Source: an uncultured Pirellulales bacterium (lineage in GTDB: Bacteria > Planctomycetota > Phycisphaerae > Sedimentisphaerales > Anaerobacaceae). From it: a DNA stretch of 41,153 nucleotides. The notes beneath the pieces were generated by a model, which made no database searches, was not told where the DNA came from, and saw only the letters and a program-made list of their open reading frames with translations. The translations under genes and the position numbers were made by a program. Below, in pieces: positions 6,229 through 40,697 of the stretch; position 1 is the first letter of the stretch; each line of letters begins with the position of its first letter. The DNA lies in NCBI GenBank assembly GCA_964399325.1, contig CAYNQP010000001.1:1-41153 (forward strand). The letters are read 5' to 3'.

Positions 6229-6250
6229 TTGCAGACCTCCTAATTACAAC

Positions 6251-6275
6251 TGTACATTCTGTACATAAGTGTACA
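6251..6275 (-). promoter_or_regulatory. Putative antitoxin operator: three TGTACA palindromes
   Basis: TGTACA occurs at 6251-6256, 6260-6265 and 6270-6275 (centre spacing 9 and 10 bp). They begin 23 nt upstream of the Phd start codon (6228) in an AT-rich stretch. Confidence 0.5.
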
Positions 6276-6334
6276 ATATGTGGCACGGTTTGTCAAGGCC
6301 TCCGCGCTGGTCGGAGATGCGTATGAACCTCTGA

Positions 6335-17986: not shown

Positions 17987-17999
17987 GTCCGACGTTCTC

Positions 18000-20941: not shown

Positions 20942-20958
20942 AGTTCTTCGCGCAGCGG

Positions 20959-20990
20959 TATAGGTCGTATAAGTCCTATAGGACCTATGG
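20959..20990 (-). repeat. ATAGGWC-type leader motif, copy 1 (contains the perfect 12-bp palindrome GTCCTATAGGAC at 20973-20984)
   Basis: TATAGGTCGTATAAGTCCTATAGGACCTATGG lies 17 nt upstream of the DUF58 start codon. I counted 22 of 30 positions identical to 40724-40755, in the same orientation relative to the downstream minus-strand gene. Confidence 0.6.
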
Positions 20991-21013
20991 CATTGGGTGC
21001 AATGTACCCAATG
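20991..21013 (-). other. Intercistronic stem-loop between moxR and the DUF58 gene
   Basis: CATTGGGT-gcaatgt-ACCCAATG: an 8-bp perfect stem with a 7-nt loop, beginning 4 nt after the MoxR stop codon. Confidence 0.5.
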
Positions 21014-21016
21014 CGA

Positions 21017-25676: not shown

Positions 25677-26812
25677 AGAGACGCGAGTTCTCTCCGGTGT
25701 GGTTTTGGGCGATGGTCGTCAAGGAGTTCATCCAGATGCGCCGGGACCGCCTGACGTTCGGGATGATGATCGGCATTCCTCTGCTGCAGCTCACGCTCTT
25801 TGGCTTCGCCATCAATTCGGACCCGAAACACCTGCCTGCCGCGGTGCTCCTGGCCGATCGCGGGCCGCAGGGTCGCACGCTGCTGCACGCCCTTCGCAAT
25901 AGCGGCTACTTCGATTTCGTTCGGTAGGTCGAGACGGAGTCCAAGGCCCACAATCTGCTGGCGCGCGGCCAGGTCCAGTTCGTCCTCAATATCCCGGCGG
26001 ATTTCACGCACGATCTGCTCCGCGGTGAGAGGCCGTCGGTCCTGATCGAAGCGGACGCGACCGATCCGGCCGCCACCGGCAACGCCCTCGGCGCTTTGCG
26101 CGCCCTGATGAACACGGCGCTGCAAAACGATCTCACCGGTCCGCTTGCCTTTCTCGCCGCCGGCGACGCGCCGGTCGAGGTGCGCATCCATGCGCTGTAC
26201 AACCCCGAAGGCATCACGCAATACAACATCGTGCCCGGCCTGATGGGTGTTGTCCTGACGATGACCATGGTCGTGATCACCTCCCTGGCGATGACACGCG
26301 AGCGAGAGCGCGGCACCATGGAGAACCTCCTGGTCATGCCCGCGCACCCGACCGAGGTCCTGATCGGCAAAATCGTTCCGTATGTCCTTGTCGGCTACGT
26401 GCAGGTCTTCCTGATCCTCGCCGCCGCGCGTTTCCTCTTTCACGTGCCCATAGTCGGCAATCTCGGCTTGCTGCTCGTTGTCACGTTAGTGTTCATCACC
26501 GCCAACCTGGCGATGGGCATCATGTTCTCCACCTTGGCCGGCAACCAGCTCCAGGCCGTGCAGATGGCGTTCTTCTTCTTCCTGCCGTCCCTGTTGCTGT
26601 CCGGCTTCATGTTTCCTTTCCGCGGCATGCCGCAATGGGCCCAGGTGATCGGAGAAATGTTTCCGCTCACGCATTTCCTGCGCATCGTCCGCGGCATCCT
26701 GCTCAAGGGCAACGGCCCTGCGGACGTTGCCGGACAGCTCTGGCAAATCGCCCTCTTCGCCGTCGTCGCCCTGACTATCGGCGTGAAACGTTACCGCCAG
26801 ACGTTGGATTAG
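25673..26812 (+). pseudogene. ABC-2 permease (YbhS/YbhR-like) interrupted by one in-frame TAG at 25925-25927
   Basis: MKRREFSPVWFWAMVVKEFIQMRRDRLTFGMMIGIPLLQL...SGYFDFVR-TAG-VETESKAHNLLARGQVQFVLNIPADF...TMENLLVMPA...FPFRGMPQWAQVIGEMFPLTHF. Both halves are in the same frame and together make one canonical ABC-2 permease. The ATG overlaps the ATPase stop (ATGA). Confidence 0.75.
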
Positions 26813-26825
26813 CCGCGACATCGCA

Positions 26826-26854
26826 TTGACAGCGATTGGTGCGTTCGGTACGTT
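26826..26854 (+). promoter_or_regulatory. Sigma70-like promoter candidate TTGACA-N17-TACGTT, copy 2 of the shared element
   Basis: ATTGACAGCGAT...GTACGTTGCTCGGC lies about 125 nt upstream of ATG 26978. I counted 33 of 47 positions identical to 23534-23580. Confidence 0.4.
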
Positions 26855-26926
26855 GCTCGGCTTTGCCTGGGCTTCGCACGTGTCGTGAGCATCTTGCCGA
26901 CGATTTGGGCCCGGCTTGGTTTTCTA

Positions 26927-26974
26927 ACGTGGGCGAGACGCCCACGGCACGCGCGGGCAAGATGCCCGCGACAC
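26927..26974 (+). repeat. REP-like element type 2, copy 1 (two adjacent hairpins)
   Basis: ACGTGGGCGAGACGCCCACGGCACGCGCGGGCAAGATGCCCGCGACAC. Hairpins: GTGGGCG/CGCCCAC and CGCGGGC/GCCCGCG. 45 of 48 positions are identical to 38110-38157. Confidence 0.75.
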
Positions 26975-26977
26975 GAT

Positions 26978-27328
26978 ATGGCATGGCTCAAATCACCTGT
27001 TCTGATCGTTGTGGCAGCGCAGTTGCTCTTCACGACCGGCGACCTGATCGCCCGTGCCAACATGCGCCACAGTCCCTTCACCTTATCGACCTTTCTGAGC
27101 GGATGGTTCCTGTTCTACTTCGTGATCCGCCAAGTGGCCATGTTCGGGCAGCTCTACGTCTTCAGCGCCCTGCAAATCGGCAAGACCATGGCCCTTTTCA
27201 GCGCCACCTCCATCGTGCTCGTGAACGTGCTCGGCATCTTCCTGCTCGGTGAGGTCCTGTCCGTCCGGGCCTACCTGGCCATCGGCATGGTCGTGCTGGC
27301 CTTCGTCATCCTTTCTTTGGCCTCGTAA
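26978..27328 (+). CDS. Small 4-TM DMT-superfamily membrane protein (SMR/EamA-half-like)
   Basis: 116 aa: MAWLKSPVLIVVAAQLLFTTGDLIARANM...ALQIGKTMALFSATSIVLVNVLGIFLLGEVLSVRAYLAIGMVVLAFVIL. The TM3-TM4 region parallels SMR/EamA helices, but the SMR TM1 Glu is not evident. No clear RBS. The track ORF start at 26885 falls inside the repeat-rich leader. Confidence 0.6.
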   Translation: MAWLKSPVLIVVAAQLLFTTGDLIARANMRHSPFTLSTFLSGWFLFYFVIRQVAMFGQLYVFSALQIGKTMALFSATSIVLVNVLGIFLLGEVLSVRAYLAIGMVVLAFVILSLAS

Positions 27329-27350
27329 TATCCTGCCCTCCGCGTTCTTT

Positions 27351-27438
27351 CGTAGGGGCGAATAATCATTCGCCCTCACGCGTGTACGGATCGGCCTGCC
27401 CACTCTCGGACCAGGGCGAATGATTATTCGCCCCTACG
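27351..27438. repeat. REP-like element type 1: perfect 26-bp inverted repeat pair, each arm itself a hairpin
   Basis: CGTAGGGGCGAATAATCATTCGCCCT (27351-27376) and its exact reverse complement AGGGCGAATGATTATTCGCCCCTACG (27413-27438) are separated by 36 nt. Each arm contains GGGCGAAT-nnnn-ATTCGCCC. The pair lies between the DMT-gene stop and the blaI-like promoter. Confidence 0.85.
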
Positions 27439-27486
27439 GGAGGCACAGGTCGCAAAAAATATCCCCGGAAAATTGCCAAATTGCCC

Positions 27487-27515
27487 TTGCAATCTCTACA
27501 AGTGTAAAGTAATCT
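27487..27515 (+). promoter_or_regulatory. Promoter TTGCAA-N17-TAATCT with a BlaI/MecI-type TACA/TGTA operator in the spacer
   Basis: -35 TTGCAA (27487-27492) and -10 TAATCT (27510-27515). The palindrome TACA-AG-TGTA is at 27497-27506. AAAGGAGG RBS precedes ATG 27545. Confidence 0.5.
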
Positions 27516-27544
27516 CGTCAATGTTAAAGAGAAAGGAGGTTCGT

Positions 27545-27928
27545 ATGGCGACGAAGAATCACGAACTGACGAAGGCGGAATGGGAGATTATCCAGGTCGT
27601 TTGGGAGCACCAGCCGTGTGCGGCCCCGACGGTCCAGGAACAGCTCGAAGCCCGCAAGAAGTGGACGTACAGCACCGTCAAGACCTTGATGGATCGCATG
27701 GTCGTCAAGGGCCTGCTCACGACCGAACGCATCCGCAACCTGATTTTGTACACTGCCGCCATCACGCGCGGCCAGGCGCAGAAGGGCGAGCTGACGAAAA
27801 CGCTGGCTCGGGCCTTCGGCGGGGCGTTCACTCCCATGATGCAGTTCATGCTCGACAGTAATGCGCTGTCACAGGAAGAGTTGAACGAGTTGGAAACGCT
27901 AATCCGAAAGAAACGCCGCCGCGCGTAG
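27545..27928 (+). CDS. BlaI/MecI/CopY-family winged-helix transcriptional repressor
   Basis: 127 aa. LTKAEWEIIQVVWEHQPCAAPTVQEQLEARKKWTYSTVKTLMDRMVVKGLL...R...Y is the Penicillinase_R signature. The C-terminal helical dimerisation part is present. Strong RBS. Confidence 0.9.
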   Translation: MATKNHELTKAEWEIIQVVWEHQPCAAPTVQEQLEARKKWTYSTVKTLMDRMVVKGLLTTERIRNLILYTAAITRGQAQKGELTKTLARAFGGAFTPMMQFMLDSNALSQEELNELETLIRKKRRRA

Positions 27929-28000
27929 AGACACCTGCCTTTTGCGTGTCCATCGCCACAGAATGCCTAAGCGAGCGTTTCAGATAGCGGAGATTCCATC

Positions 28001-31000
28001 ATGAACGCAGTGGTGCAGACAATCAACTCGGCCGGCCGGGCATTCGTCACATCGGCCTTGCCCATGCTGGTCCAATCGAGCGTTTTGATTCTGATACTGC
28101 TTCTGGTTGACCTCGTGTTGCGCCGCAAAGTCCGGGCGGTTTTTCGCTACTGGATCTGGATGCTGGTGCTGCTCAAGCTGGTGCTACCGCCTTCGCTGTG
28201 GTCGCCGGTCAGCTTCGGGACCTGGTTCGGCCGGACCCTGGAGGTCCCGACCGTGGCTTTGGAGGAGCCTGCCGAGCCTCCGCGCGAAGAACTGCCGGTC
28301 CTGCCCGGGTGGCAGCCTCAAGCGCAGCTTGGGGATGGTTTGCGTCCCACTCGGGACAACATCATCGGAGGATATGCCCCCACTTCCGGGGTGGCAGCGG
28401 CAAGCGATAGCTTGCCGATGGAGACACCGGATACGGGCCGGGCCATCGTGCTGGAGCCGGACCGATTGCCGGCTGTGCCAGCCATGACGCCGGAACCTGC
28501 ACCTTCACTGACTTGGCAAGGCCTCGCACTGCTCGTATGGGCAACCACTGCTATCGCTTTGCTCTTGTTGCTGGTCCAACGGGCATTGTTCGTCAAGGAC
28601 CTCGTGGCCCAGGCCGACCCGGCGCCGGACTCCCTGCAAAAGGCTCTCGATGCGTGTCGCGGCCGGATGGGCCTTACAGGGCGACTGACACTGAAGATCT
28701 CGCCGAATGCGACGAGCCCCGCCGTGTGCGGGTTGCTCAGCCCCGTGATCTTGATCCCCAGGAATCTCGTCCCAAGGCTGCGCCCGGGCGATCTGCAGGC
28801 CGTGCTGCTGCACGAACTGGCGCATATCAAGCGGAGCGATCTCTGGATCAATCTTCTCCAAACGCTGCTGCAGATCGTCTACTTCTACAACCCGTTGTTC
28901 TGGATTGCCAACGTTGTTATTCGCCGGGTCCGCGAGCAGGCCGTCGATGAGGCTGTCCTGGTCGCGCTGGGCGACACCGCCCGCCAGTATCCCGAGACAC
29001 TGCTCAACATCGCCAGGTTAGCGTTCCGCCGCCGGCCGGCCCTGAGCCTGCGTCTTGTCGGCGTCGTCGAATCCAAGAGCGCCCTGCGCGGCAGGATCAA
29101 GCACATCCTCAGCCGCCCCGTCCCTAAAACCGCCAAGCTGAGCCTGCTCGGTATGGCCGTGGTGTTTCTTGCCGCCGCGATCCTCCTGCCGATGGCCAAG
29201 GCCCGGAAGAACGAAGGTCGTCCACAGTTTACGGAAGCCCAGATCTCTGCTGCCCTTGAATCACTGCGAATCGACCCGAATGACAGAGAAACACTGAACG
29301 TATCTTACTGGTGGGAGGGACTCGACCTGGATTCCAATTCGAAAGTGCCGCGCCGAAACGGTTGGCCTTCTGGCGTGGACATTAGCTTTGAAGCAGAACT
29401 CAGAAATGGCAGAAGGATTGAAGACTTCGTGGCCGTAAGTCTTGGCCCGGGCCGCATCGATGCTGTATATGGTCGCAGGATACTGACCCTCAAGTCCGAC
29501 GATATTGGGGCGGCCGCCGCAGAGTTGCTCGAGCGATTCGATGAGCTTGAGAACAGCAAAGCCGGTATGAATGGCTTCTACACGAACGACCTGCCTACGT
29601 TTTTCGCGGTTCTGTCTGATGGCGTGGTCTCCGCTGCCGCCCATCTCGACCGACGCGGTGATTCTGTAGCGGCCGAGCAGAAGCTCTCGCTGATACGAAT
29701 GACGAAAGCCCTTGCACGAGATGTGAAGATCGAATACTGGCAAGGCGTGCGGCCACAGGATACGACCGGCGCAGACGCGTCGGCTCCACTGCCCCTGACC
29801 GAGCGAGCAGAGAAGGTGATGCCGGTCGCCGAGCAGGAGGCCCGACGGCTCAACCACGCCTATGTCGGCACCGAACACATTCTTCTGGCTCTGGCGCGCC
29901 AGGACGCCGCCGTCAGCGCCAAGGCCTTAAAGAACCTCGGTGCAGACATCGATACGTTGCGCGCCGAAGTGAACAAGTTCGTCCAACCCGGCTCGGAACC
30001 CGTGACCCAGCGCACGCTGCCGCAGACCCAGCGCGCCAAGAGAGTAATGAAGTGCGCTAGAGGAGAGGCCAGGACCCTCGGACACGACTACATCGGAACC
30101 GAACACATCCTCCTGGGCCTCGTGCGGGAAAAGGAAAGCATCGCCGCCCAGGTTTTGGGCAGCGTGGGTCTGACGTGGCACCAGATTCGCGCCGAGACTC
30201 TGAAATTCGTGAAACCGGGGGACACCCCGCCGGCTGATCCCGCGACGAGCACCAGCCTCGCGGATGCGGATGGTGACGGGCTGTCTGACTTTCAGGAAAT
30301 CCACAAGTACCTCACTGACCCGGCAAAAGCCGATAGCGATGGCGACGGCATTGGTGACGGCGATTGGGCGGAACGGCGTGAATATAGCTACTCCGTGCGG
30401 ACGATCTTGCGCTACCTGCCCCCGCTCGACGAAGACGGGCTCAACGACGACTTTCAGGATGCGCGCGTCCTGAACCGGACGGATGGCTGCATCGAGGTCG
30501 AGGTCATTCACTATCCGTTGGCAACCGTTTATGATTCCATCGGCGAGAATCCCAACTGGAGGCAAGACTATGCGCGCATGAGCGAGTACCTGTCACCTAG
30601 TGTGACCTCCAATTGGGATAGGCAAATGCAGCGCGACCTGCGGGCCGCCCTGAAGGCAGACAGCATCGACGTCGAGAGGCTCACGGACAAGCAGGTTGTG
30701 CAACAGGTCGCGCAATGGCTGTTGCACAGGTCGCGATCCCTCGACAAGGTCTTCACCACATACTACGCCTACTATCCTGAGGGAAAGCCACAGGTCTATC
30801 CCGGCCTGGAAGGGGCTTTTCGTAGCGAATTCGAGCGTGACAGCGACAACTACGATTGGACCCTCGACGAGCACTTCGACCACGAGCTGCTCGGCAAGGG
30901 GATGTTCTACAATCAGACGCACGGCTCCTGCACCTCCACCGCGGTCTATCTGAACACCGTGCTGCGGGCCTTGGGGATTCCGACACGCATCATCCTCGTC

Positions 31001-34000
31001 ACGCCGGCGGTCGATGCCTCCGATCGCGAGCAGATTCTTATGGTCAAGGACGCCATCACACACAACCGTGTGCGCGAGACGATGTTGGCCGGCCTGCGAC
31101 GATCCAGTCACGGCTTCACCAACCACACGTTCAACGAAGTCTACGTCGGCAACAGGTGGGTCCGCCTGGACTACAGCACGCTCGGTCCTCCCATTCTGGG
31201 GTTACGCCGGTCCGGCCTGCAGACCCGCCTCTATACCCTCAACGATCTCAGTGACGCCAACTTTGCGCCAACCTGGGGTAAACGCTACGCCGAGGGACAG
31301 CGCAACGACATGTTCAAGCACAGCAATCCGTATTCCGCCGTCAGCATCTCGGACTCGTTCGGGCCCCACAGTCGTCTGCCCAACCCGCCCTTCGATCCGC
31401 AGGATCTCGCTTCTAGTTCAAGTCCGCTGTCCGACATCTTCATCTTCTCTCCCAGCGCCATCAATGTATGGGACGAGGCTATGGCGATCGTCAAAGACAG
31501 GACGTTCAATAAGACGGGCCGGCCGCACCGAAAGGAATTCTACGAGAACATCTTCGAAGGCGTCTGGGCCAAGAAGCCGGGTGACGTCCTCGTTGCGCTC
31601 TTTTCGCTCGACACGCCGGAGCGTATCCCCGAAGGTTACGGAGATTTGCTGCCGGAGCCCTGGCCCGGAATCGAATCGCGCCTCAGACGGGGTGAGTCCG
31701 TCGAGCTCGGCGCGGAAGCACGCGAGATGAACGTCATTCTGCTCGCCGCCCCGACGGCAGCGGAACTGCCGGCTTTGGTCGAAGTCTCCACATTGCTCAA
31801 GACCTTGGGCACATCGACCGAGGCGACACTTGAGCCAGCCGAGGCTGCGGACCGACGGAGCGTTCCCAGGCCAGACGCGAAGGTAGCCGGGATCGGCCCG
31901 GCGTGGGAGGCGCTCAGGGATCGAGTCGGTGACCGTTACCGTGGAACCATCGGCGGGTTCGGCCGGGACGAGACGCGCTGTGCCGAGTACTTCGAGAAGG
32001 TGCTTTCCTGGGCACGCGCCGGAGACACCTTCGTGCTGATGTTCGCCTTCGACGAGCCTACGACGGTGCCGCCGCAGTACGAGGACCTGCTGCCAGTGCC
32101 GATGTCTGAGGTCAGTAGCCGTATCGGAGTAGGACAATGGGTTGAAGCGTCCCGGCCGGCTCGCGACCTGAACGTAGTCCTTCTGGCAGCGCCAACACTC
32201 GCACGGCTCAATGAGATCGTCAAGACGACACCACTTCTCAACGCCAACGCCAATTTCGCCGCTCCGGCCGAGGCACCCGAGACCGGCACCGCCGGCAGAC
32301 AGCGCATTCGTCTCGCTGATCTGGAGACGCCGGACGCCAATGCCGTTCTCGATCTGGCGACGGAGCAGTTGCTCTCGGCCAGGCCGATGCAGTATGACGA
32401 GGCGTACTTCCGCAAGCTGGGCAAGGGCGATCTCGTCTATGAATCCGTCGGCGGCAAGAGCGGCCTGCTCTGCCTGCGCGGCGCTCGATTGCAACGTCGC
32501 ACCGAGGCGGGCACCGAGCCACTGACTCCTGATGTCACGCACGAGTCCTTCGTTGGGTACTTTATCGAGAACGTTCCAGCCCAGTATCAAGTCACCACCG
32601 CCGAAGGTGACAGCTACGAGCTGAATGTCATCTCCATCGACCGGGGCGACGGCGGAGGCGCCCTGGTCGAGTTCTCCCGGGGCGCTACCGAGCAAACTGA
32701 GCCGGTGGCAGATGTCCTGGCGAACCTGCGCCTGCTGGCTCTGGGCGTCGTGCTGTTTGCCCACGAGCACGAAGGAAGCCTTCCCTCGACCCTGACGGCC
32801 ATCGAACCCTACGTCCCCGACCGCGAGCAGCTCGCCTGGATGCGCGCGAATGTCACCTACGTTGGCAAGGGCAATGTCAACCGCGGGGCCAAACCCTCCG
32901 CGATCCCCATCGCTTACATGAAGGCGCCGGAGCCCATGGACGGCGCTTATGTCGCCTTCATGGACGGACACGCCGCGCTCGTCCCGGCGGAGCGCTTCGA
33001 GGAGCTGGGCCTTGAGCCCGAGGACACGGCTCGCGTCAACGGCCCGGGACCACTGGGGCGATACGCCCTTTCCTTCGACGGGGTCGATGATTGCCTGATC
33101 GTACCGGCCAGTCCGTCGCTGCGGTTCAAAGCGCCCTTCTTCATTGAGGTGTGGGCGAAGCCGGATTCCTCGCCATCTTCCGCCTGGCTTGCTGATGACT
33201 TGTCGGGCCGGTATTTGACAAGCCTCATTCGACAGGGCGCAGAACTTCGCCATCCACCGGTAGCGGAGATCCTTGACGCCAACGACGCCGAGGGGATTGA
33301 GGTGGAGAAATGGCCCGTCGTATGGTCCCGCACGAAGATCGCTTTCGATGGTCTACAGTCGGGCGGTTTCATAGGCTTCACACGCGAGCGCTCCGGCTCG
33401 CTGTTTGTGATTCGGGAAGACGGGCGTCCCAGGCAAACGAATCTCTTCTCGACGAACCAATTGTTGGCGGACCGCCCGGGCTGGCGGCACTTCTACACAT
33501 GGCTGGAGGACTGGGAGGAGTATGTGCCGTCTGACGGCCCGTTGGTGATCGGCGGCAACATCCTCCCGAATGGCCCGGCCTTCAAAGGCCAGATTGCGGA
33601 GGTTCGCATCTGGAACAAGATGCTGCCCATTTACTACACGTCGTCCTGCGGGTCAACCACGGTGACGGGCAGCGAGCCGAACCTTGTCGCCTGTTGGACG
33701 TTCGAGGAGGGCAACGGCCAAATCGTCCGCGACATCAGCCCCAACGGCAATCACGCCTGGCTCGGTAGTTCTGTCGAGGCCGACGCCACCGACCCAAAGT
33801 GGATTGACCTGGCGCAGACCAATGAGATGTCAGCGAATGGGATCCCCGCGTGCGTGACTGAACCGCCAGAGCAGGAGGCCGAAGCAGGTGCAGCAGCGTT
33901 CGCCTCGATCCAACCTAGGATCGACGACGCGGACCCCCAGTTGCGCTATCTCGCTTGGCAGGTTGATGATGACGCTCAGCCCCGTCGGTATTGGTATCCA

Positions 34001-37000
34001 AATGGCCAGAGAGTCACGGACAGTCATGAGTTGAAGACCGTGCAGGGGGCCGAGACGAAGTCGATCGGAAGAGACGGCGACCCGTCGTCGTGCCAATACC
34101 TGACTCTGTGGTTTTCCAACTTGGCTTGGCACGTGCCCGATGACTTCGACGTGAGGATTGTCGACAGGCGCACGCGCGGGGCCCTGCCGTGGAAGCAAAG
34201 CGGGTGGTACAAGGTCGTTCCAGCCAATTGGACGGGCGTTGTCTTCTCGATAGAATCCGAGGAAGCTTATCCGGCCACCTGTGACGTAGAGATCGACTGT
34301 CAGGACGGCGCATGGCAGACGGTGCAGGGTAACATCGGCTGCAATCCCCAGGGGGGCGTGTCTTTGGAAAGAAACATTCGTTTCTCACAGACCGGCGAGA
34401 ACGCGTCCAATCACACATTTGCGCTCGCAATCAGGGACGCCCAGAGGACAAACGAGCGATACCGTCTCGTCGCCGTCAAGAACGATGGGAGCCTCGTCGA
34501 GCCTGGCCGTCCGGAAACGACCGGTCCCGACGAGGCCCGCCAGGAGCGCTTCGTGTTTCGGGTACCGTTGTCCGAGATCAGCCATTTCACCCTCCAGAGG
34601 CAGCCCATCACCACGGTGCGACTTACCGACGTCCAGCTCCCGCCCTGGTCCGGCGCTGATGCGAGTCCAACACACGAGCTTTCTGATTCAGGCAAACTGT
34701 TCGGCAGGATCCTCGGTCTTGATGGCAAACCTGTGACCGGCGCGCAGGTGGCGCTCTGTGCGGCGGACAAAGGTGTGGTCATACGTGGCTCTGGACTCGC
34801 TCCCACAAATGTGCCTCGGTACCCCAGTGAGATTGTACAGACGGATATCGACGGCAGGTTCTCGTTTGCCGAGGCGCCCGAGGGATTTTGCATTATTGCG
34901 GCGCATCAAACGGGTTTCGCCAAGGTGGCAAGTACGGCGATGGCGTTATCGGCGGACGTTCAACTCAAACGGTGGGGCCGAATTGAAGGAACGCTGCGCA
35001 TCGGGCGCGAATTGGGGGCGGACGAAAAAGTCGCGCTGCTCAATACGGTCACACGCGAGAGTGACCGAGGTATCCAGTACGATCTCGGCGTCGAGACTGA
35101 CAGTACAGGCTGGTTTGTCTTTGAGAGGGTTCCGCCGGGTCAGATACGTCTTGGCCACCAGATACCGGTAGGGCACGGAAACAGCTATGCGAATGTCAGG
35201 CCCATTCAAGTCCTGTCCGGTCGAACAGTGCAGGTGACGCTGGGTGGGACCGGTCGGCCGGTAGTTGGAAGGCTTGTTCGGCCAAAGGACTCCAATGAAC
35301 CTGTCGATTTTGCCTGGGGCACATATATTCTAACACCCGCGTGGCCGGAGGAGCCGAGACCCGCCGACTACAACGAGATGACAGAGCCTCAGCAGACCCA
35401 ATGGCACAAGGAGTGGTCGGAAACACCCGAGAGCAAGACGCTCTGGGACGCCTGGCGGCGCAATCCGAACTGCCGGAGTTACGCCTTCGGCGTTCACGAA
35501 GACGGCTCCTTTCGTATCGAAGACGTCATTCCGGGTCAATACCGGCTCATGGTCTTGCTTCGGGAGCTTTCGCCGCCCCGCCCCTCTGTCAAGTCCATCG
35601 GTCCCTACTTCGCCATCGTCGAAGTGCCGCAGATGGCGGAGGTGTACACCAGCAAACCACTGGACCTCGGCGCCGTCACGCTGACGCTGGCAGAGGATTC
35701 CAGCGCGAAGGCTTCCCGGGCCTCGAGCGCCGACACCTCAGAAGCGGACGCCGCCGACCTGAAGTGGAGCGATCTCTCGGAGACGCACGGGGCGCAGGCA
35801 GTTCCGGAGGCCAGGGAGTGCATGCTGCAACTTGGCCTGGCGGTGGCGTTGTATGTGAACGACCACGACGGCCAACTGCCGACGACGCTTTCGGCGCTGG
35901 AGCCCTATCTGTCCGAGCCGGAAGTGTTCGCGTGGCTCAATGAGAACGTCGTCTACACGGGCAAGGGCAATGTGAAGGACTACCCCGCGACATATGCGGT
36001 TGTTACTGCCCATGAGAAGGCTCCTCGGCCGACTGGCGAGCGGTACGTTACCTTCCTGGATGGCCATGTTGCGCTGGTCGGGGCTGACCGTTTTCAGACG
36101 CTCGGTGCAAGCGGCGCAGCGCCGTCGGGCCCGTCGTCGGATCTGCTCAAACGACTTGTCGAGGAAGCTCGGCCCGGCGCGACCGTCACCGTCCCTAAGG
36201 GGACCTATGGCACGCCCATCGAAATCACCAAGCCTCTGCTGCTGCGCGGCGAGTCCGAGGAGGGCTGCATCATTGAGGTCACAGTCGATGGTCCCGCCAT
36301 CGCGATCGACACCAAAGGACAGGGGCACGTCACCATCGAAAATCTTACGGTCAAATGGCAACGGGCGACGAGCGACAGTGCAGAGCGGCCGTTCGCCCTG
36401 GCGGTCAAGGACAGCAACGTCTCTGTCCGCCATTGCCGTTTCGTGCCGCTGGGCAACAATCAGCGCTGCCCCATGGCGGTTCGCATCGACGGCTTCTCCG
36501 AGGCCACGCTGAGCGACTGCCGCTTTAGCGGGTTTGATTATACTGTCTGTTATGGGCCCGGCAGCGAGGGCATCGTGCAGGATTGTATTCTCACGGATCC
36601 CGGCCATCAGGGTATCACAGGCTACGAAAACAGCACCCTGCGCGTGGAGCGGACGATCGTGATCGGGTCCGGCTACCACGGCCTGCGCTGCACCGGTGGC
36701 ACGCTGCACGCCCGTGACAATATCCTCGCCGACAACCGGGTCTCCGGTGTCTACCTCGGGAACAAAGATGGGCGCGGGACCGTGATCGGCAACCTGATGC
36801 TCCGCAACGGCGAGGGTGTCGCCGGATTCTATCAAGCTGAGTTCAGCGTGGAAGACAACGTGATTGCCGATTCGATCACCGCCGGCCTCGGGGCCTGGAG
36901 CACCTGCCGGCTGAATGTCCGCCGCAACGTCTTTCAGAACAACGCCACCGCCCTGGTCGTCTATCCGAAAGGCGAACGAGACACCAACATCATTGGCCGC

Positions 37001-37399
37001 AACACGTTCTGGCAAAACGTCGCCGATGCCAAGGACTGCACGCTCAGCGCCGACTCGATCCTGGCCGATCCGCAGTTCGCGGACCCCAATCACGGTGACT
37101 TCTCGGCCGCCGGACCCGTGCGCGAGCAGAACCACGGCCTGACCGATTCGCAAACGATTCGAGACCTTTGGCCGAGATACGAACAAGCGCAGCGCCAGCG
37201 GCCGGTTGACACAGCGACACGCCGGGACGTTGCACCGCCAGGTTCTCAAGGGCCGGCACCAGAGCGGCCGCCTGGGGTACGGGCATCGTTGTCGACGAGC
37301 CTGCGGGCCAACGGTCTCGCGTGCAGATCCGCGATTGCGACATCCGCAACTGCCACTATGCGGGCGTTCGCATCCGCAAGGGCAACAACGATACGCTGA
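28001..37399 (+). CDS. Giant (3132 aa as tracked) M56-family (BlaR1/MecR1-like) membrane zinc metalloprotease with a composite roughly 2700-aa C-terminal region
   Basis: TM helices lie within the first roughly 400 aa. HELAH is at 28811-28825 (His271), followed by the hydrophobic YFYNPLFW helix; the last TM ends at about 29195. Approximate domain map: Clp_N double repeat 29795-30220; TSP3-like DADGDG/DSDGDG 30260-30365; transglutaminase-like core with Cys977 (30929), His1042 (31124) and Asp1057 (31169); duplicated modules 31538-31810 and 31982-32245; DUF1559-like modules 32704-33015 and 35811-36108; LamG-like 33060-33770; CarboxypepD_reg-like 34700-34925; parallel beta-helix 36130-37140. The last roughly 60 codons (after about 37210) are Arg/Ala/Ser/Thr-rich and look out of frame. 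Confidence 0.85.
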   Translation: MNAVVQTINSAGRAFVTSALPMLVQSSVLILILLLVDLVLRRKVRAVFRYWIWMLVLLKLVLPPSLWSPVSFGTWFGRTLEVPTVALEEPAEPPREELPVLPGWQPQAQLGDGLRPTRDNIIGGYAPTSGVAAASDSLPMETPDTGRAIVLEPDRLPAVPAMTPEPAPSLTWQGLALLVWATTAIALLLLLVQRALFVKDLVAQADPAPDSLQKALDACRGRMGLTGRLTLKISPNATSPAVCGLLSPVILIPRNLVPRLRPGDLQAVLLHELAHIKRSDLWINLLQTLLQIVYFYNPLFWIANVVIRRVREQAVDEAVLVALGDTARQYPETLLNIARLAFRRRPALSLRLVGVVESKSALRGRIKHILSRPVPKTAKLSLLGMAVVFLAAAILLPMAKARKNEGRPQFTEAQISAALESLRIDPNDRETLNVSYWWEGLDLDSNSKVPRRNGWPSGVDISFEAELRNGRRIEDFVAVSLGPGRIDAVYGRRILTLKSDDIGAAAAELLERFDELENSKAGMNGFYTNDLPTFFAVLSDGVVSAAAHLDRRGDSVAAEQKLSLIRMTKALARDVKIEYWQGVRPQDTTGADASAPLPLTERAEKVMPVAEQEARRLNHAYVGTEHILLALARQDAAVSAKALKNLGADIDTLRAEVNKFVQPGSEPVTQRTLPQTQRAKRVMKCARGEARTLGHDYIGTEHILLGLVREKESIAAQVLGSVGLTWHQIRAETLKFVKPGDTPPADPATSTSLADADGDGLSDFQEIHKYLTDPAKADSDGDGIGDGDWAERREYSYSVRTILRYLPPLDEDGLNDDFQDARVLNRTDGCIEVEVIHYPLATVYDSIGENPNWRQDYARMSEYLSPSVTSNWDRQMQRDLRAALKADSIDVERLTDKQVVQQVAQWLLHRSRSLDKVFTTYYAYYPEGKPQVYPGLEGAFRSEFERDSDNYDWTLDEHFDHELLGKGMFYNQTHGSCTSTAVYLNTVLRALGIPTRIILVTPAVDASDREQILMVKDAITHNRVRETMLAGLRRSSHGFTNHTFNEVYVGNRWVRLDYSTLGPPILGLRRSGLQTRLYTLNDLSDANFAPTWGKRYAEGQRNDMFKHSNPYSAVSISDSFGPHSRLPNPPFDPQDLASSSSPLSDIFIFSPSAINVWDEAMAIVKDRTFNKTGRPHRKEFYENIFEGVWAKKPGDVLVALFSLDTPERIPEGYGDLLPEPWPGIESRLRRGESVELGAEAREMNVILLAAPTAAELPALVEVSTLLKTLGTSTEATLEPAEAADRRSVPRPDAKVAGIGPAWEALRDRVGDRYRGTIGGFGRDETRCAEYFEKVLSWARAGDTFVLMFAFDEPTTVPPQYEDLLPVPMSEVSSRIGVGQWVEASRPARDLNVVLLAAPTLARLNEIVKTTPLLNANANFAAPAEAPETGTAGRQRIRLADLETPDANAVLDLATEQLLSARPMQYDEAYFRKLGKGDLVYESVGGKSGLLCLRGARLQRRTEAGTEPLTPDVTHESFVGYFIENVPAQYQVTTAEGDSYELNVISIDRGDGGGALVEFSRGATEQTEPVADVLANLRLLALGVVLFAHEHEGSLPSTLTAIEPYVPDREQLAWMRANVTYVGKGNVNRGAKPSAIPIAYMKAPEPMDGAYVAFMDGHAALVPAERFEELGLEPEDTARVNGPGPLGRYALSFDGVDDCLIVPASPSLRFKAPFFIEVWAKPDSSPSSAWLADDLSGRYLTSLIRQGAELRHPPVAEILDANDAEGIEVEKWPVVWSRTKIAFDGLQSGGFIGFTRERSGSLFVIREDGRPRQTNLFSTNQLLADRPGWRHFYTWLEDWEEYVPSDGPLVIGGNILPNGPAFKGQIAEVRIWNKMLPIYYTSSCGSTTVTGSEPNLVACWTFEEGNGQIVRDISPNGNHAWLGSSVEADATDPKWIDLAQTNEMSANGIPACVTEPPEQEAEAGAAAFASIQPRIDDADPQLRYLAWQVDDDAQPRRYWYPNGQRVTDSHELKTVQGAETKSIGRDGDPSSCQYLTLWFSNLAWHVPDDFDVRIVDRRTRGALPWKQSGWYKVVPANWTGVVFSIESEEAYPATCDVEIDCQDGAWQTVQGNIGCNPQGGVSLERNIRFSQTGENASNHTFALAIRDAQRTNERYRLVAVKNDGSLVEPGRPETTGPDEARQERFVFRVPLSEISHFTLQRQPITTVRLTDVQLPPWSGADASPTHELSDSGKLFGRILGLDGKPVTGAQVALCAADKGVVIRGSGLAPTNVPRYPSEIVQTDIDGRFSFAEAPEGFCIIAAHQTGFAKVASTAMALSADVQLKRWGRIEGTLRIGRELGADEKVALLNTVTRESDRGIQYDLGVETDSTGWFVFERVPPGQIRLGHQIPVGHGNSYANVRPIQVLSGRTVQVTLGGTGRPVVGRLVRPKDSNEPVDFAWGTYILTPAWPEEPRPADYNEMTEPQQTQWHKEWSETPESKTLWDAWRRNPNCRSYAFGVHEDGSFRIEDVIPGQYRLMVLLRELSPPRPSVKSIGPYFAIVEVPQMAEVYTSKPLDLGAVTLTLAEDSSAKASRASSADTSEADAADLKWSDLSETHGAQAVPEARECMLQLGLAVALYVNDHDGQLPTTLSALEPYLSEPEVFAWLNENVVYTGKGNVKDYPATYAVVTAHEKAPRPTGERYVTFLDGHVALVGADRFQTLGASGAAPSGPSSDLLKRLVEEARPGATVTVPKGTYGTPIEITKPLLLRGESEEGCIIEVTVDGPAIAIDTKGQGHVTIENLTVKWQRATSDSAERPFALAVKDSNVSVRHCRFVPLGNNQRCPMAVRIDGFSEATLSDCRFSGFDYTVCYGPGSEGIVQDCILTDPGHQGITGYENSTLRVERTIVIGSGYHGLRCTGGTLHARDNILADNRVSGVYLGNKDGRGTVIGNLMLRNGEGVAGFYQAEFSVEDNVIADSITAGLGAWSTCRLNVRRNVFQNNATALVVYPKGERDTNIIGRNTFWQNVADAKDCTLSADSILADPQFADPNHGDFSAAGPVREQNHGLTDSQTIRDLWPRYEQAQRQRPVDTATRRDVAPPGSQGPAPERPPGVRASLSTSLRANGLACRSAIATSATATMRAFASARATTIR

Positions 37400-38061
37400 T
37401 CGAACGATGTCGCGTCTCGGGGGCGGCTTGGCACGGCATCCGCTACGACGATGCCTCCCCCGACATTCTCAACAACATTATCTTCGGCAACGCCCGCATG
37501 GGGGTTCACGCCTCCGGTCAGACGAGGGCGACCGTCGCCAACAACCTCTTCTACGCCAATGACATGTGCGGCCTGGCCTGCTGGTTCCGGAACCAGGACC
37601 TCGTTCTGAACAACACCTTTGCCGAGAATGAGCGCTCAGCGCTCGAAATCCTCGGCGCCTCCAAGCCGGCCGTGCACAAGAACATCTTCTACGCCAACCC
37701 GACCGGCATTTCCGGAGGCTACATCAACGATGACTCTCCTTTCGCCCAGTCCGGTGCTCCCGTCCTGCCGCGAGGCTGCTTGTTCTGGGCCAACGAGTGC
37801 AACATGCAGTGGCGAATCGATCCGAACACGACCGAGACAATTACGCTGGAGGACGACATCGGTACGAGGCATGTCGATCCGGAGTTTGTCTCGGCGGCGC
37901 CGAAAGATTTCTCGTTGCCTGCCGACTCACCCGTCCGGCGGAATGAGATTGGTGCGCTGGACCCGATCCCGTTTGCGAGTCCGTGGCCGCTTCAACCCGA
38001 AGAGATTACCATCATTCCCGACGGCGACACCCGCGACTACCGGCGGTGGAAGACTCCGTAG
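37321..38061 (+). CDS. Parallel beta-helix (PbH1) repeat protein; probably the displaced C-terminus of the giant gene rather than an independent gene
   Basis: VQIRDCDIRNCHYAGVRIRKGNNDTLIERCRVSGAAWHGIRYDDASPDILNNIIFGNARMGVHASGQ..ATVANNLFYAN...VLNNTFAEN...VHKNIFYAN. The track start is a GTG with no RBS. This frame is open and has high GC3 from 37210, immediately after a TGA at 37207-37209. Confidence 0.55.
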   Translation: MQIRDCDIRNCHYAGVRIRKGNNDTLIERCRVSGAAWHGIRYDDASPDILNNIIFGNARMGVHASGQTRATVANNLFYANDMCGLACWFRNQDLVLNNTFAENERSALEILGASKPAVHKNIFYANPTGISGGYINDDSPFAQSGAPVLPRGCLFWANECNMQWRIDPNTTETITLEDDIGTRHVDPEFVSAAPKDFSLPADSPVRRNEIGALDPIPFASPWPLQPEEITIIPDGDTRDYRRWKTP

Positions 38062-38109
38062 GTCGGCTACGAGACGGCGGTGACTGTCCTGGAAACTCTG
38101 TCACGACGG

Positions 38110-38157
38110 ACGTGGGCGGGACGCCCACGGTACGCGCGGGCAAGATGCGCGCGACAC
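38110..38157 (+). repeat. REP-like element type 2, copy 2
   Basis: ACGTGGGCGGGACGCCCACGGTACGCGCGGGCAAGATGCGCGCGACAC. It sits in the convergent gap between the beta-helix ORF and glgP, abutting the glgP stop codon (38157-38159). Confidence 0.75.
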
Positions 38158-40697
38158 TACTGCGCCCACTTGATCAGTTCAGGATGCGAATCCTGGAGCA
38201 CGGGATCGGCCGGCCGGACGCGGACGTTCATGCTGAGCAGGCCATGCTCGGCGATGTCGAAAGAGCACGTGTAGGAACGCGAAGAGCCTTCCGTATCGCC
38301 GACGGTCATGGGGATCAGGTGAAAATCGTCCTTGTCGCTGCGTCCCAGATATAACTCCACGCCGAACAAGTCCGGCGCGGCGCCATCAAAATCCACCGTG
38401 CAGCGCACGTCCACGCGCTCGCCTTGGCTGACGCGATCTTTCTTGTCTACGCTGGTCGACAAGTCGCGGATATTGATCTTGTCCCAGTGATCCAGAACAG
38501 ACTGCTCGCCTTGCAGGGCCTTTCTGAGCAACTCATAGCCGTTGGCGGAGAGTTCGGCGATCTGGCGTTTGGCCGGCACATAGAACTTCTGTGCGTATTG
38601 TGCCAGAACGCGATTCATGTTGAAGTCCCGACAGGCGGTGGCGATGGAACGTTTCATCATCTCCACCCATTTGGTCGGAATTCCCAGCTCATTGCGGTCG
38701 TAGTACCGCTCGGTGATGACGGCTTCCAGCAGATCGTAGATCTGGTTGGCCTCGGCGACCTCCTTCAACTCCGAGTGTTCGTAGAATTCTCCCGCGGTGA
38801 TGGCCCAGCCGTTCTTGCCGTCGTAGGCTTCGGGCCACCAGCCATCCAGAACGCTGCAATTCAGGACGCCGTTGATGGCGGCCTTCATGCCCGAGGTGCC
38901 GCTGGCTTCGTACAGTCTGATCGGTGTATTCAGCCAGACGTCGGCTCCCCAGGCCAGGTGCCTGGCGATGTTCATATCGTAGTCTTCGAGGAAGATCACG
39001 CGGTCCTCGACATGGTGGTCTTTGGCGAAGGTGATGATTTCGCGGATCAGTTCCTTTCCGGATCGGTCGGCGGGGTGCGCCTTTCCCGCGAAGAGGAGTT
39101 GAACGGGCTTGGCGGTGTTGGTCAGGATCTTGACCAGCCGCTCCTTGTCTTTGAGAATGAGCGTGGCGCGCTTGTAGCGCGCAAAGCGCCGCGCATAGAC
39201 TACGGTCAAGTACTCCGGGTTCAGTAGTCGCGTGAGGTTCTCGATCCGAGTCTGAATATACCCTTTGGCGGTCAGATCGTCCGCCAGTTTCTTACGCACG
39301 AACGTCACCAGATTCTGTTTGTTCTTGCGATGGGCCTCCCAGATCTCCTCGTCGGGGACCCCGGAGATCTTGTCCGACAGCCCGCGATTGCCGGCGCAGT
39401 GGACGTAGGCCGGCCCGACGTGCCGGTTGAGCAGTTCCGTAAAGGGTTGGCTCAGCCATGAACGATGCACTCCGTTGGTCACGTAGTCGATCGGAATCTC
39501 CTGGGGCTGCCGGTTCGGATAGAGGCTGGCCCACATGTTGCGGGAGACATCCCCATGGAGCTTCGAGACGGCGTTGATGTGCGTGGCGAACCGTATGGCA
39601 AACGCCGGCAGCGAGAAGACGGCCTTGTCCTGGCCCACGAAGCCATAGGAGGCAATCTCGTCGAAAGTCACACCGAGCGAGTCGGTTTTGGATTCGAGAT
39701 ACTTCTCCACCAGTTCCGCATCGAAGTTCTCGTTGCCTGCTTTCACGGGGGTGTGCGTGGTGAAGACGGTGGACGCTCTGATCATGGCCTTGGCTTCCGC
39801 AAAGCTCAGTTTGCCTTCATCCATTAGTTGATGCAGCCGGGCGACGATGAGAAAGGCGGAGTGGCCTTCGTTGATGTGGTAGATCGTCGGACGGATGTCA
39901 AGCCGTTCGAGGGCCCTAACGCCACCTATGCCCAGAACCAGCTCCTGCCGCAAGCGTTTCTCCCTGTCGGCCACGTAGAGCTCGTGGGTAATGCCGCGCA
40001 GATCGGGCGGGTTGTCCTCGATGTCGGTGTCGAGCAGGATCAGTCGCGTGCGCCCGACGGCAATCTCCCAGAGCTTGACGCGCAGCGGCGCCCCGAGGAT
40101 CGTCATGTCGATGTAGGCCTTCTCTCCGTGGGCATCGCGCAGCTCGCGCACCTGGATGAGGTGATTGTCGAACTCCGCGAAGAGCTCTTCCTGATAGCCG
40201 TCCAGGTTGATGCGCTGCGTAAAGTATCCGAATTTGTAGATCAGCCCGACGCCGATCACCGGAAGCGCCATGTCGGACGCCGCCTTGAGGTAGTCTCCTG
40301 CCAGGATGCCGAGACCGCCTCCGTAGATGGGGATGCACTCGTGCAGGCCGAACTCCATGGAGAAGTAGGCGACCGTGTCATCGGCGCTCAGGCCTTTGAC
40401 CTGGGCCGCGTCGGCACTGGGATCGTAGGACATGTACTCCTGGTAGTTCTCCCAGACCTGGTTCAACTCGAAGAGAAAGCCATCGTCATGGGCAAGCTCA
40501 TCGATGCGCTGCTGCGACAGGCTCAGGAGCAGTTTGACAGGATTGTGTTTGGCGGCCTGAAACAGATGGGCGTCCACATGGTAGAACAGGCGGATCGCGT
40601 CATAGTTCCAGGTCGTCCACAGGTTGTAGGCCAGGACGTACAACTTCTCGAGATTGTCGGGGTACCGCGGGTAGACAAAGATATTTCTGAAAGCCAT
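38157..40697 (-). CDS. glgP: Alpha-glucan phosphorylase (GT35, 'alpha-glucan family phosphorylase' type)
   Basis: 846 aa. MAFRNIFVYPRYPDNLEKLYVLAYNLWTTWNYDAIRLF...GGLGILAGDYLKAASD...INEGHSAF...EASGTSGMKAAINGVLN (PLP-Lys region). GGGAGGGAG RBS. Confidence 0.95.
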   Translation of the reverse strand: MAFRNIFVYPRYPDNLEKLYVLAYNLWTTWNYDAIRLFYHVDAHLFQAAKHNPVKLLLSLSQQRIDELAHDDGFLFELNQVWENYQEYMSYDPSADAAQVKGLSADDTVAYFSMEFGLHECIPIYGGGLGILAGDYLKAASDMALPVIGVGLIYKFGYFTQRINLDGYQEELFAEFDNHLIQVRELRDAHGEKAYIDMTILGAPLRVKLWEIAVGRTRLILLDTDIEDNPPDLRGITHELYVADREKRLRQELVLGIGGVRALERLDIRPTIYHINEGHSAFLIVARLHQLMDEGKLSFAEAKAMIRASTVFTTHTPVKAGNENFDAELVEKYLESKTDSLGVTFDEIASYGFVGQDKAVFSLPAFAIRFATHINAVSKLHGDVSRNMWASLYPNRQPQEIPIDYVTNGVHRSWLSQPFTELLNRHVGPAYVHCAGNRGLSDKISGVPDEEIWEAHRKNKQNLVTFVRKKLADDLTAKGYIQTRIENLTRLLNPEYLTVVYARRFARYKRATLILKDKERLVKILTNTAKPVQLLFAGKAHPADRSGKELIREIITFAKDHHVEDRVIFLEDYDMNIARHLAWGADVWLNTPIRLYEASGTSGMKAAINGVLNCSVLDGWWPEAYDGKNGWAITAGEFYEHSELKEVAEANQIYDLLEAVITERYYDRNELGIPTKWVEMMKRSIATACRDFNMNRVLAQYAQKFYVPAKRQIAELSANGYELLRKALQGEQSVLDHWDKINIRDLSTSVDKKDRVSQGERVDVRCTVDFDGAAPDLFGVELYLGRSDKDDFHLIPMTVGDTEGSSRSYTCSFDIAEHGLLSMNVRVRPADPVLQDSHPELIKWAQ

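Follow-up and report, generated by a model that had tools for sequence, protein, structure and literature searches.

The locus described here lies on the forward strand of a 41,153-nt contig (CAYNQP010000001.1, assembly GCA_964399325.1) of an uncultured Pirellulales bacterium, hereafter the window, and consists of a blaI-like repressor gene followed, after a gap of 72 nt, by a single open reading frame (ORF) of 9.4 kb whose product begins with an M56 membrane protease and continues into a very large array of outer modules (Table 1). An initial annotation had placed the repressor, the gap, the giant ORF and its HELAH motif (nt 28811-28825) at coordinates that were all confirmed, and the pairing of a BlaI-type repressor with an M56 protease that it proposed is well founded: the repressor matches Pfam Penicillinase_R with 104.8 bits (cutoff 22.6; E=4.5e-30; model positions 1-114 of 115) and the giant protein matches Peptidase_M56 with 157.9 bits (cutoff 31; E=4e-46), both far above cutoff. 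Likewise, the sensor region was described as lacking a penicillin-binding domain, and no transpeptidase or beta-lactamase Pfam match was obtained in the 3132 aa.

The repressor aligns over its full length and without gaps to MecI (1SD6; E=3e-15; MecI residues 2-123) and to BlaI (1SD4; E=2e-9). It scores below every NCBIfam BlaI/MecI cutoff (BlaI_of_BCL, 76 against 180; MecI, 51 against 250; BlaI_of_MRSA, 39 against 250), and its best NCBIfam match, CopY_TcrY at 78.5 bits, is under the respective cutoff of 121.95. Only one cysteine is present (C25), and the C-terminal CxCxxxxCxC metal motif of the CopY type is absent. The best-conserved part of the C-terminal half is the segment aligned to the N101-F102 cleavage site of MecI/BlaI, and the motif AF.GA.TPMMQF (aa 90-101) is conserved at 90% or more among 34 close relatives.

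For the giant protein, a protein search returned 230 matches, the best 120 of which are M56 proteins of 1,729-4,467 aa with a median of ~2,460; where their sources are named, these are metagenome-assembled genomes (MAGs) of Phycisphaerae, Sedimentisphaerales and 'Planctomycetota', together with the isolate Anaerobaca lacustris. Hydropathy reveals four strong membrane segments at aa 17-40, 44-66, 172-195 and 378-400 (TM1 to TM4), with a basic loop (RRKVR) between TM1 and TM2, an acidic, proline-rich outer loop of 104 aa between TM2 and TM3 (aa 67-170), and the HELAH motif at aa 271-275 in the loop between TM3 and TM4. Residues 175-388 align to residues 105-317 of Staphylococcus aureus BlaR1 (8EXP), with HELAH on HEYAH, EQAVD on ExxxD and R365 on R294, so that E312, D316 and R365 correspond to E242, D246 and R294 of that protein. 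Residues H271, E272, H275, E312, D316 and R365 are invariant in 119-120 of the 120 homologues; furthermore, L350-R351-L352, aligned to the autocleavage site of BlaR1 (S-F there), is invariant in the family, with Leu at P1' versus Phe in BlaR1. Because these catalytic residues and the L350-R351-L352 triplet do not vary, the protease core is under strong constraint. By homology, the protease loop is predicted to be cytoplasmic and everything past residue 400 extracytoplasmic, a placement that agrees with the types of modules found there and with the signal or lipoprotein peptides carried by free-standing homologues of one of the cassettes (see below).

Upstream of the gene pair, a -35-like TTGCAA (27487-27492) and a -10-like TAATCT (27510-27515) are separated by a 17-nt spacer that contains the palindrome TACAAGTGTA (27497-27506), extended to CTCTACA-AG-TGTAAAG at 27494-27509. 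This arrangement had been annotated as a promoter with a palindrome; a strict consensus sigma-70 scan called no promoter at 27487-27515, and we retain the assignment as putative because the arrangement is conserved across loci. The consensus of 24 distinct related loci reads CTTGCaaTCTyTACAnnTGTArAGtAntCT, then gTTAaAG, then AAGGAGG-ATG, with the operator fixed ~49 nt 5' of the blaI ATG, its half-sites invariant and its central dinucleotide free, which is the pattern predicted for the site of a dimeric repressor. TACA-NN-TGTA is also the core of the staphylococcal bla/mec operators. The 16-mer operator occurs in exactly one copy per locus (21 loci, flanks up to 10 kb), and the window likewise contains a single one.

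Sites of the form TACANNTGTA occur twice in the window against 0.06 expected. The second one, at 6245 (TACAACTGTA), was rejected as a BlaI target: it is devoid of the extended arms and sits in a promoter (6240-6280) dense with TGTACA repeats, which precedes a toxin-antitoxin pair on the minus strand (5592-6280) formed by a Phd/YefM antitoxin (5989-6228) and a PIN/VapC toxin (5592-6005), and is unrelated to the BlaI operator. The stretch from the ABC-2 transporter genes to the blaI promoter contains two arms of 25 nt spaced by 37 nt (27352-27437), namely GTAGGGGCGAATAATCATTCGCCCT and a second arm that is its exact reverse complement; a hairpin is formed within either arm (GGGCGAAT, 4 nt, ATTCGCCC), and these two are the only copies in the window (0.03 expected). 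They could represent a terminator-like or a REP/MITE-like element (repetitive extragenic palindrome or miniature inverted-repeat transposable element). No structured RNA match was found in an Rfam scan of 26800-38200, which covers the leader and the intergenic regions.

Taking these elements together, every cytoplasmic and DNA-level component of the BlaR1 scheme is present and conserved at this locus, and for that reason we favour, with a probability of about 0.6, an autoregulated proteolytic derepression switch of the BlaI/BlaR1 type that carries a modular periplasmic sensor and responds to a cue other than a beta-lactam. In such a switch, a dimer of the BlaI-like protein would bind the extended palindrome between the -35 and -10 elements and repress both blaI and the giant gene; the giant protein would be anchored by its four helices, with the zinc-protease loop in the cytoplasm and ~2,700 residues in the periplasm. 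The outer part is no beta-lactam sensor but consists of interchangeable cassettes of a binding or enzyme-like type; once it encounters its cue, the M56 domain might, by analogy with BlaR1, cut the repressor in the conserved TPMMQF segment, so that the repressor would fall off and the operon, possibly along with distant genes, would be switched on. Most probably, the switch would respond to a macromolecule, be it a polysaccharide or a protein, or to a state of the envelope, as suggested by the module types and by their reuse on a kinase ectodomain; the glycan or surface protein put forward in the initial annotation would be compatible with these module types.

The modules past TM4 are listed in Table 1. 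The Clp_N pair, the transglutaminase-like core, LamG, CarboxypepD_reg and the beta-helix, all named in the initial annotation, are matched by Pfam profiles, and the Clp_N pair also matches the N-terminal regions of ClpA, ClpB and ClpK in NCBIfam. Of the calcium sites proposed there as TSP3-like, the DxDxDG motifs can be seen (aa 755-763 and 778-786), but Pfam TSP_3 gives no match. The transglutaminase-like triad C977/H1042/D1057 is intact, and among 123 homologues its Cys and His do not vary. The proposed duplication was confirmed for both module pairs, i.e., A1 (aa 1140-1270) and A2 (aa 1290-1425), with 38% identity (E=8e-21), and C1 and C2; they emerge from pairwise comparison of segments, as a whole-protein BLAST self-comparison misses internal duplications. 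LamG is present in 35 of 120 homologues. The segment at aa 1930-2215 looks by eye like a diverged copy of a recurrent module of ~240 aa in the family (W-W/Y-x-P-D/N-G ... F-x-x-Q-x-x-P). A search with PADLOC gave no meaningful match, and an anti-phage defence system was discarded on this basis.

Table 1. Features of the blaI-M56 locus (positions in nt of the window; aa, residues of the giant protein)
Feature	Position	Strand	Basis or remark
Putative promoter with embedded operator	27487..27515	+	Conservation across related loci
blaI-like gene	27545..27928	+	127-aa winged-helix repressor, BlaI/MecI/CopY family
Giant M56 ORF	28001..37399	+	3132 aa as read from the ORF
M56 transmembrane zinc-metalloprotease module, aa 1-400	28001..29200	+	Pfam, BlaR1 alignment, hydropathy
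Juxtamembrane segment, aa 400-600	29201..29797	+	No Pfam match at E<=0.1; found in 4/120 homologues
Clp_N repeat pair, aa ~600-750	29798..30260	+	Pfam Clp_N E=1.8e-30, two stretches
TSP3-like/transglutaminase/A1/A2 cassette	30263..32275	+	Pfam Transglut_core E=3e-8; A1/A2 duplication
Module B, aa 1436-1562	32306..32686	+	All-beta; AlphaFold2 (AF2) predicted local distance difference test (pLDDT) 90
Module C1, aa 1565-1672	32693..33016	+	C1/C2 49% identity, E=7e-32
LamG/concanavalin-like module, aa 1680-1905	33038..33715	+	Laminin_G_3 30.1 bits (cutoff 27.6), passed when the isolated segment was scanned alone
Module, aa 1930-2215	33788..34645	+	No Pfam match; 5/120 homologues at 27-42% identity
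CarboxypepD_reg/fn3_3-type beta-sandwich block, aa 2225-2565	34673..35695	+	Pfam CarboxypepD_reg 35.5 bits (cutoff 32.3), E=1e-8; 51/120 homologues
Module C2, aa 2600-2705	35798..36115	+	Duplicate of C1; AF2 pLDDT 88, alpha/beta
Right-handed beta-helix 1, aa 2715-3087	36143..37261	+	Pfam Beta_helix E=2e-15 / NosD
Out-of-frame tail, 45 non-homologous codons and stop	37262..37399	+	tblastn with orthologues
Untranslated remnant, C-terminal half of beta-helix 2	37264..38061	+	-1 frame relative to the main ORF; Pfam Beta_helix E=3.8e-18

Modules B and C were also compared at the level of structure. The AF2 model of module B is confident, yet its best PDB match in Foldseek reached E=0.37 with a template-modelling score of ~0.3, i.e., no solved structure was matched and a fold assignment was dropped; for the C2 model no structural neighbour was obtained in the PDB. 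Thus, at least two common modules of the family (B and C) are devoid of a counterpart among solved structures. A relationship of C1/C2 to pseudopilins or H-X9-DG proteins, considered from a helix followed by ...F-L-D-G-H-V, was rejected, with no TIGR04294 match at E<=10, no N_methyl or SBP_bac_10 Pfam match and no pilin in Foldseek; a C-related fragment (P0245) does pass NCBIfam H-X9-DG-CTERM (TIGR04294; 32.6 against 19), and the relation is kept as a distant resemblance. Module B is found in 44 of 120 homologues, often in several copies, and its family comprises just 265 clusters among 1.84 billion representatives. It occurs in secreted proteins as well (signal-peptide PEGA, TPR and LRR proteins), and in P0280, a Ser/Thr kinase of 1906 aa whose ectodomain is giant (domains Pkinase, PEGA, STN, B, T2SSG and SecDF_P1_head) and whose T2SSG-like and SecDF_P1_head-like modules are also modules of the giant M56 family. 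A single pool of cassettes therefore serves several kinds of envelope proteins in these bacteria, and the occurrence of module B and related modules in a kinase ectodomain and in secreted proteins supports a sensor role for them here.

At the family level, a scan of one genome per species yielded at least 467 related loci. Among the best 80 of these, blaI lies 0-110 nt upstream of 33 of the 37 close relatives and of 69 of the 86 M56 genes, and several of the M56 genes without an upstream blaI sit at contig ends. Several MAGs are represented by two loci, and in some cases one locus contains two M56 genes; the family appears to be multi-copy per genome. Shorter M56 genes were also observed within 10-15 kb of giant ones (L001, 22636-23010; L012; L057), such as that for a 534-aa M56-SnoaL protein in L001.

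The genomic context of the window recurs at the loci of two orthologues, P0007 (3669 aa; MAG GCA_963986555.1) and P0034 (1938 aa; A. lacustris, JASCXX010000009.1, 142.6-160.4 kb): blaI, the giant M56 gene, then convergent alpha-glucan phosphorylase, cupin and HD genes, with a MoxR/DUF58/BatA operon or GHL15 upstream. The outer architecture varies within this conserved setting. P0007 has in common with the window protein the M56 core, Clp_N, module B, LamG, and C2 with beta-helix 1 (73% identity), without the transglutaminase and CarboxypepD_reg blocks, and P0034 shares the M56 core, Clp_N and CarboxypepD_reg only. Across the homologues the M56 core is universal (118/120), and each module of the window is found in 4 to 51 of 120, often in several copies and in varying order. 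A comparison of M56 gene neighbourhoods, as proposed in the initial annotation, therefore supports the blaI pairing, which recurs in dozens of genomes, but not a fixed architecture, the outer part being shuffled. Clp_N, present in 35 of 118 homologues, directly follows TM4 in 21 and stands 200 aa further out in the window; a conserved juxtamembrane transducer module was rejected, since Clp_N adjoins TM4 in those 21 of 118 only and a single-linkage cluster of 89 proved to be a chaining artefact.

The 656-aa cassette composed of the TSP3-like region, the transglutaminase core, A1 and A2 is also found free-standing, in proteins of 690-760 aa (98% coverage, ~55% identity) with signal or lipobox N-termini; in three such examples on long contigs (two full-length and one 540-aa form) the neighbourhoods are devoid of blaI and M56. 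The cassette is usually a separate, unlinked gene, and for this one block the refuting condition named in the initial annotation, M56 and C-terminal parts encoded apart, partly holds; nevertheless, its fusion to M56 is genuine, because at least 14 independent giant M56 proteins show it. The free-standing transglutaminase-like lipoproteins of L083/L084 (one contig, two sources) and L086 measure 540-730 aa, and these loci share the gene order STAS, HATPase_c anti-sigma-like, Amidase_2, GH10-like, HHH (ComEA-like), transglutaminase and two small ORFs, a cluster that may be related to the envelope or the cell wall; L085 displays a different gene context.

These findings also bear on what the outer part does. 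It could itself be the working product, a membrane-tethered array of enzymes and binders (the transglutaminase-like cysteine hydrolase, the beta-helix and the lectin-like modules) acting on the envelope or on captured polymers, in which M56 and BlaI only set the dosage by feedback. Such an anchored effector would fit the single operator within 10 kb in 21 loci, which leaves the giant protein as the only known output, the intact transglutaminase triad with its invariant Cys and His, the lipoprotein form of the cassette, which presumably works alone, and the peroxiredoxin/thioredoxin-like and other enzyme domains of homologues. However, the conserved protease residues, blaI and the operator are predicted by a signal-dependent switch and needless for a plain anchor, and the same modules are carried by a Ser/Thr kinase, a setting in which ectodomains normally act as sensors; we consider this explanation doubtful, albeit with an appreciable chance, and sensor and effector roles are not mutually exclusive. 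A different proposal, distinctly improbable in our view, regards the outer part as a bait array, in which enzymes and binders that the cell also makes as free-standing periplasmic proteins or lipoproteins (e.g., the 656-aa transglutaminase cassette) would have been copied and strung on M56, so that damage, cleavage or binding of a bait by an outside agent would release BlaI repression. The agents could be a hostile protease, a toxin or a phage protein, or misfolding stress acting through the Clp_N- or SecDF-head-like modules; rapid cassette swapping would then reflect an arms race and not nutrient specificity, and the locus would amount to envelope surveillance of the guard/decoy kind, for which no bacterial example on an M56 chassis has been described.

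The proteolytic switch, which remains our preferred reading, has to be considered along with a lesion at the 3' end of the giant gene. A frameshifting deletion at ~37262, overlooked in the initial annotation, truncates the protein. In tblastn with P0007, the match in frame 3 covers residues 2326-2741 and stops at nt 37261, and it picks up again at nt 37264, in frame 2, with residues 3405-3668; P0010 gives the same junction pattern. Beta-helix 1 is the last in-frame homologous part (73.5% identical to P0007 residues 2221-2741); the remnant, which includes an other-frame ORF at 37321-38061 corresponding to part of beta-helix 2, has no internal stop and matches P0007 and P0010 at their C-termini with 72-79% identity. 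Relative to the orthologues, the C-terminal loss amounts to ~930 aa, of which ~660, comprising a HEAT-like block as well as beta-helix 2 in its N-terminal half, are deleted and ~265 are out of frame. A programmed -1 frameshift joining the ORF to the remnant was rejected, as no slippery heptamer was seen by eye in 37210-37399 and the orthologues reveal the ~660 missing aa.

A 30-nt probe for the junction detected one metagenome contig from the Joint Genome Institute (JGI), L087, with the same junction and stop. It is 98.7% identical to window positions 36995-38889, with 25 differences, all in 37020-37154. This patch of 135 nt at the end of beta-helix 1 includes a compensating +1/-1 indel pair, the other ~1.75 kb being identical, and looks like a local recombination or a hypervariable patch. 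Because L087 was assembled independently and has the identical junction, the lesion is a real feature of this population and no one-off assembly error. A chimeric misassembly of the 9.4-kb ORF or of its 3' junction across repeated cassettes had been named in the initial annotation as a possible flaw, and some circumstances invite it, namely that the window is the entire 41-kb contig, that this contig is probably metagenome-assembled, its nearest relatives being mostly MAGs, that modules are repeated in the family and that the junction is out of frame. Apart from L087, it is contradicted by the occurrence of M56 proteins of equal size and with the same types of modules in more than 100 independent assemblies, some of them complete chromosomes and one that of the isolate A. 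lacustris, by a module order collinear with the syntenic orthologue where modules are shared, and by the lack of a collapsible DNA repeat (a self tblastn gives the two beta-helices only, at 26% identity); we regard an artefact as extremely improbable.

The deletion could instead be a sign that the gene is degenerating into a pseudogene in this lineage, as the loss of ~660 aa, the out-of-frame junction, the 45 junk codons, the stranded half beta-helix and the identical lesion in a second assembly would agree with decay. Against this stand 3,087 open upstream codons that are 52-74% identical to relatives and have their catalytic residues intact, the high identity and uninterrupted frame of the remnant, and the fact that members of the family end after different cassettes (1.7-4.5 thousand aa), so that a terminal loss need not inactivate the protein. 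On balance, decay seems improbable.

Several observations weigh against the proteolytic switch. The truncation itself is one of them. In the repressor, MecI N101-F102 aligns to F101-M102, and the Q100-F101 pair lies one residue upstream, out of register. The part of the outer loop at aa 81-160, equivalent to the extracellular loop EL1 that couples sensor and protease in BlaR1, is hypervariable in the alignment of 120 homologues; the membrane-adjacent module varies between homologues, with no conserved coupling device visible, and the N-terminal helix of C1 is so hydrophobic (Kyte-Doolittle 1.98) that one could take it for a fifth membrane helix. The cassettes differ between orthologues at the same locus, a poor fit with one specific ligand. 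Finally, no output gene was identified, since the sole operator within 10 kb in the 21 loci belongs to the operon itself. From the hypervariable EL1 and the missing conserved coupling element we infer that coupling, if it exists, might be generic, through a ligand-induced change of the dimer, tension, or cleavage of the ectodomain.

The neighbours of the gene pair in the window comprise ABC-2 transporter, GHL15, MoxR/DUF58 and alpha-glucan phosphorylase genes. On the minus strand, 12426-22090 holds an operon with MoxR (AAA_3), DUF58/VWA and BatA-like genes, then ORFs of 1135 and 718 aa without Pfam match; the MoxR/DUF58/BatA operon also precedes blaI in a related MAG locus (L001). Two ABC-2 pairs of ATPase and permease were observed, at 3113-5565 and 24750-26812. 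The second lies between GHL15 (22249-23436) and blaI and is absent from that place in A. lacustris (L002), where GHL15 and blaI adjoin each other in divergent orientation with 154 nt between them.

The initial annotation could attribute this architecture to no characterised system. In the literature searched, including genomics papers on Phycisphaerae and Planctomycetota, no giant modular M56 protein is described, a negative drawn from incomplete coverage and no proof of absence; database labels of the homologues read 'M56 family metallopeptidase' or similar, and nothing further. The architecture is not singular, however: giant M56 proteins, more than 230 of them (1.7-4.5 thousand aa), mostly from Phycisphaerae/Sedimentisphaerales and nearly all with blaI immediately upstream, constitute a large family without prior characterisation on a known kind of chassis, and the window copy is one truncated member of it. 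BlaR1/BlaI is the textbook case of a receptor that is itself a protease and has been studied almost exclusively as an antibiotic-resistance switch; the present locus displays this chassis with a cassette-built periplasmic head of 2,700 residues, and there are hundreds of such proteins in Phycisphaerae and other bacteria of the Planctomycetes-Verrucomicrobia-Chlamydiae group. If our reading is correct, they would represent an unexplored class of envelope sensors in these polymer-degrading and poorly understood bacteria, on a par with anti-sigma or hybrid two-component sensors, and a natural experiment in coupling very different sensor heads to one protease core. The orthologous locus of the cultured A. 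lacustris makes the proposal experimentally accessible.

Among known systems, the closest are BlaR1/BlaI and MecR1/MecI of S. aureus and Bacillus licheniformis, in which an M56 zinc protease with four membrane helices and a winged-helix repressor are likewise encoded side by side. The window protein resembles BlaR1 in its HEXXH and ExxxD motifs, in the Arg equivalent to R294, in the basic L1 loop and in the pattern of membrane segments, and its repressor has a conserved segment aligned to the N101-F102 cleavage position of BlaI/MecI, with a TACA-NN-TGTA candidate operator within the putative promoter. The unit differs in several respects: no class-D beta-lactamase-like (SxxK) sensor is present, the ectodomain is ~10 times larger and modular, EL1 spans ~100 aa and is hypervariable, the NCBIfam model blaR1_generic (NF000326) scores 123.1 bits against a cutoff of 400 and is matched at positions 106-346 of 585 only, its transmembrane and protease part, and the locus has no divergent beta-lactamase or PBP2a gene, with no blaZ or mecA among the window neighbours. 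The order of the genes, blaI then M56, is opposite to the blaR1-blaI order of the known systems. Given the missing sensor domain, the score below cutoff and the lack of a linked resistance gene, the unit is a Peptidase_M56 plus Penicillinase_R member and not BlaR1 proper.

BlaR1 is a domain-swapped dimer in which acylation by a beta-lactam displaces EL1 from the sensor, shifting the helix downstream of EL1 so that the cytoplasmic zinc protease becomes active, and it cuts BlaI directly between N101 and F102 (PMC9834060). BlaIR pairs without such a sensor have been described, namely BlaI/BlaR of Mycobacterium tuberculosis and M. abscessus and PvmSR of Pseudomonas aeruginosa, the latter reported to regulate virulence and not beta-lactam resistance (bioRxiv 10.64898/2026.08.03.742534). 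The unit studied here shares with these atypical pairs the combination of M56 and a BlaI-family regulator along with the lack of a beta-lactam sensor; their proteins, however, end soon past M56 with no ectodomain, whereas ~2,700 aa follow TM4 in the window protein, and PvmR is encoded downstream of PvmS and has an extra N-terminal domain, unlike the window repressor. CopY/TcrY regulators share the Penicillinase_R fold family, but the window repressor is paired with a protease instead of a copper ATPase and has no Cys-rich metal site. With anti-sigma factors controlled by regulated proteolysis and with Hanks-type Ser/Thr kinases, the unit has in common an extracytoplasmic modular head that would control a cytoplasmic output; in contrast to them, the sensor is itself the protease, and its predicted target is a repressor in place of a sigma factor or phosphorylation substrate. 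The principle of an M56/BlaI pair that lacks a beta-lactam sensor was thus already known, and what is new is the giant, cassette-shuffled ectodomain on that chassis.

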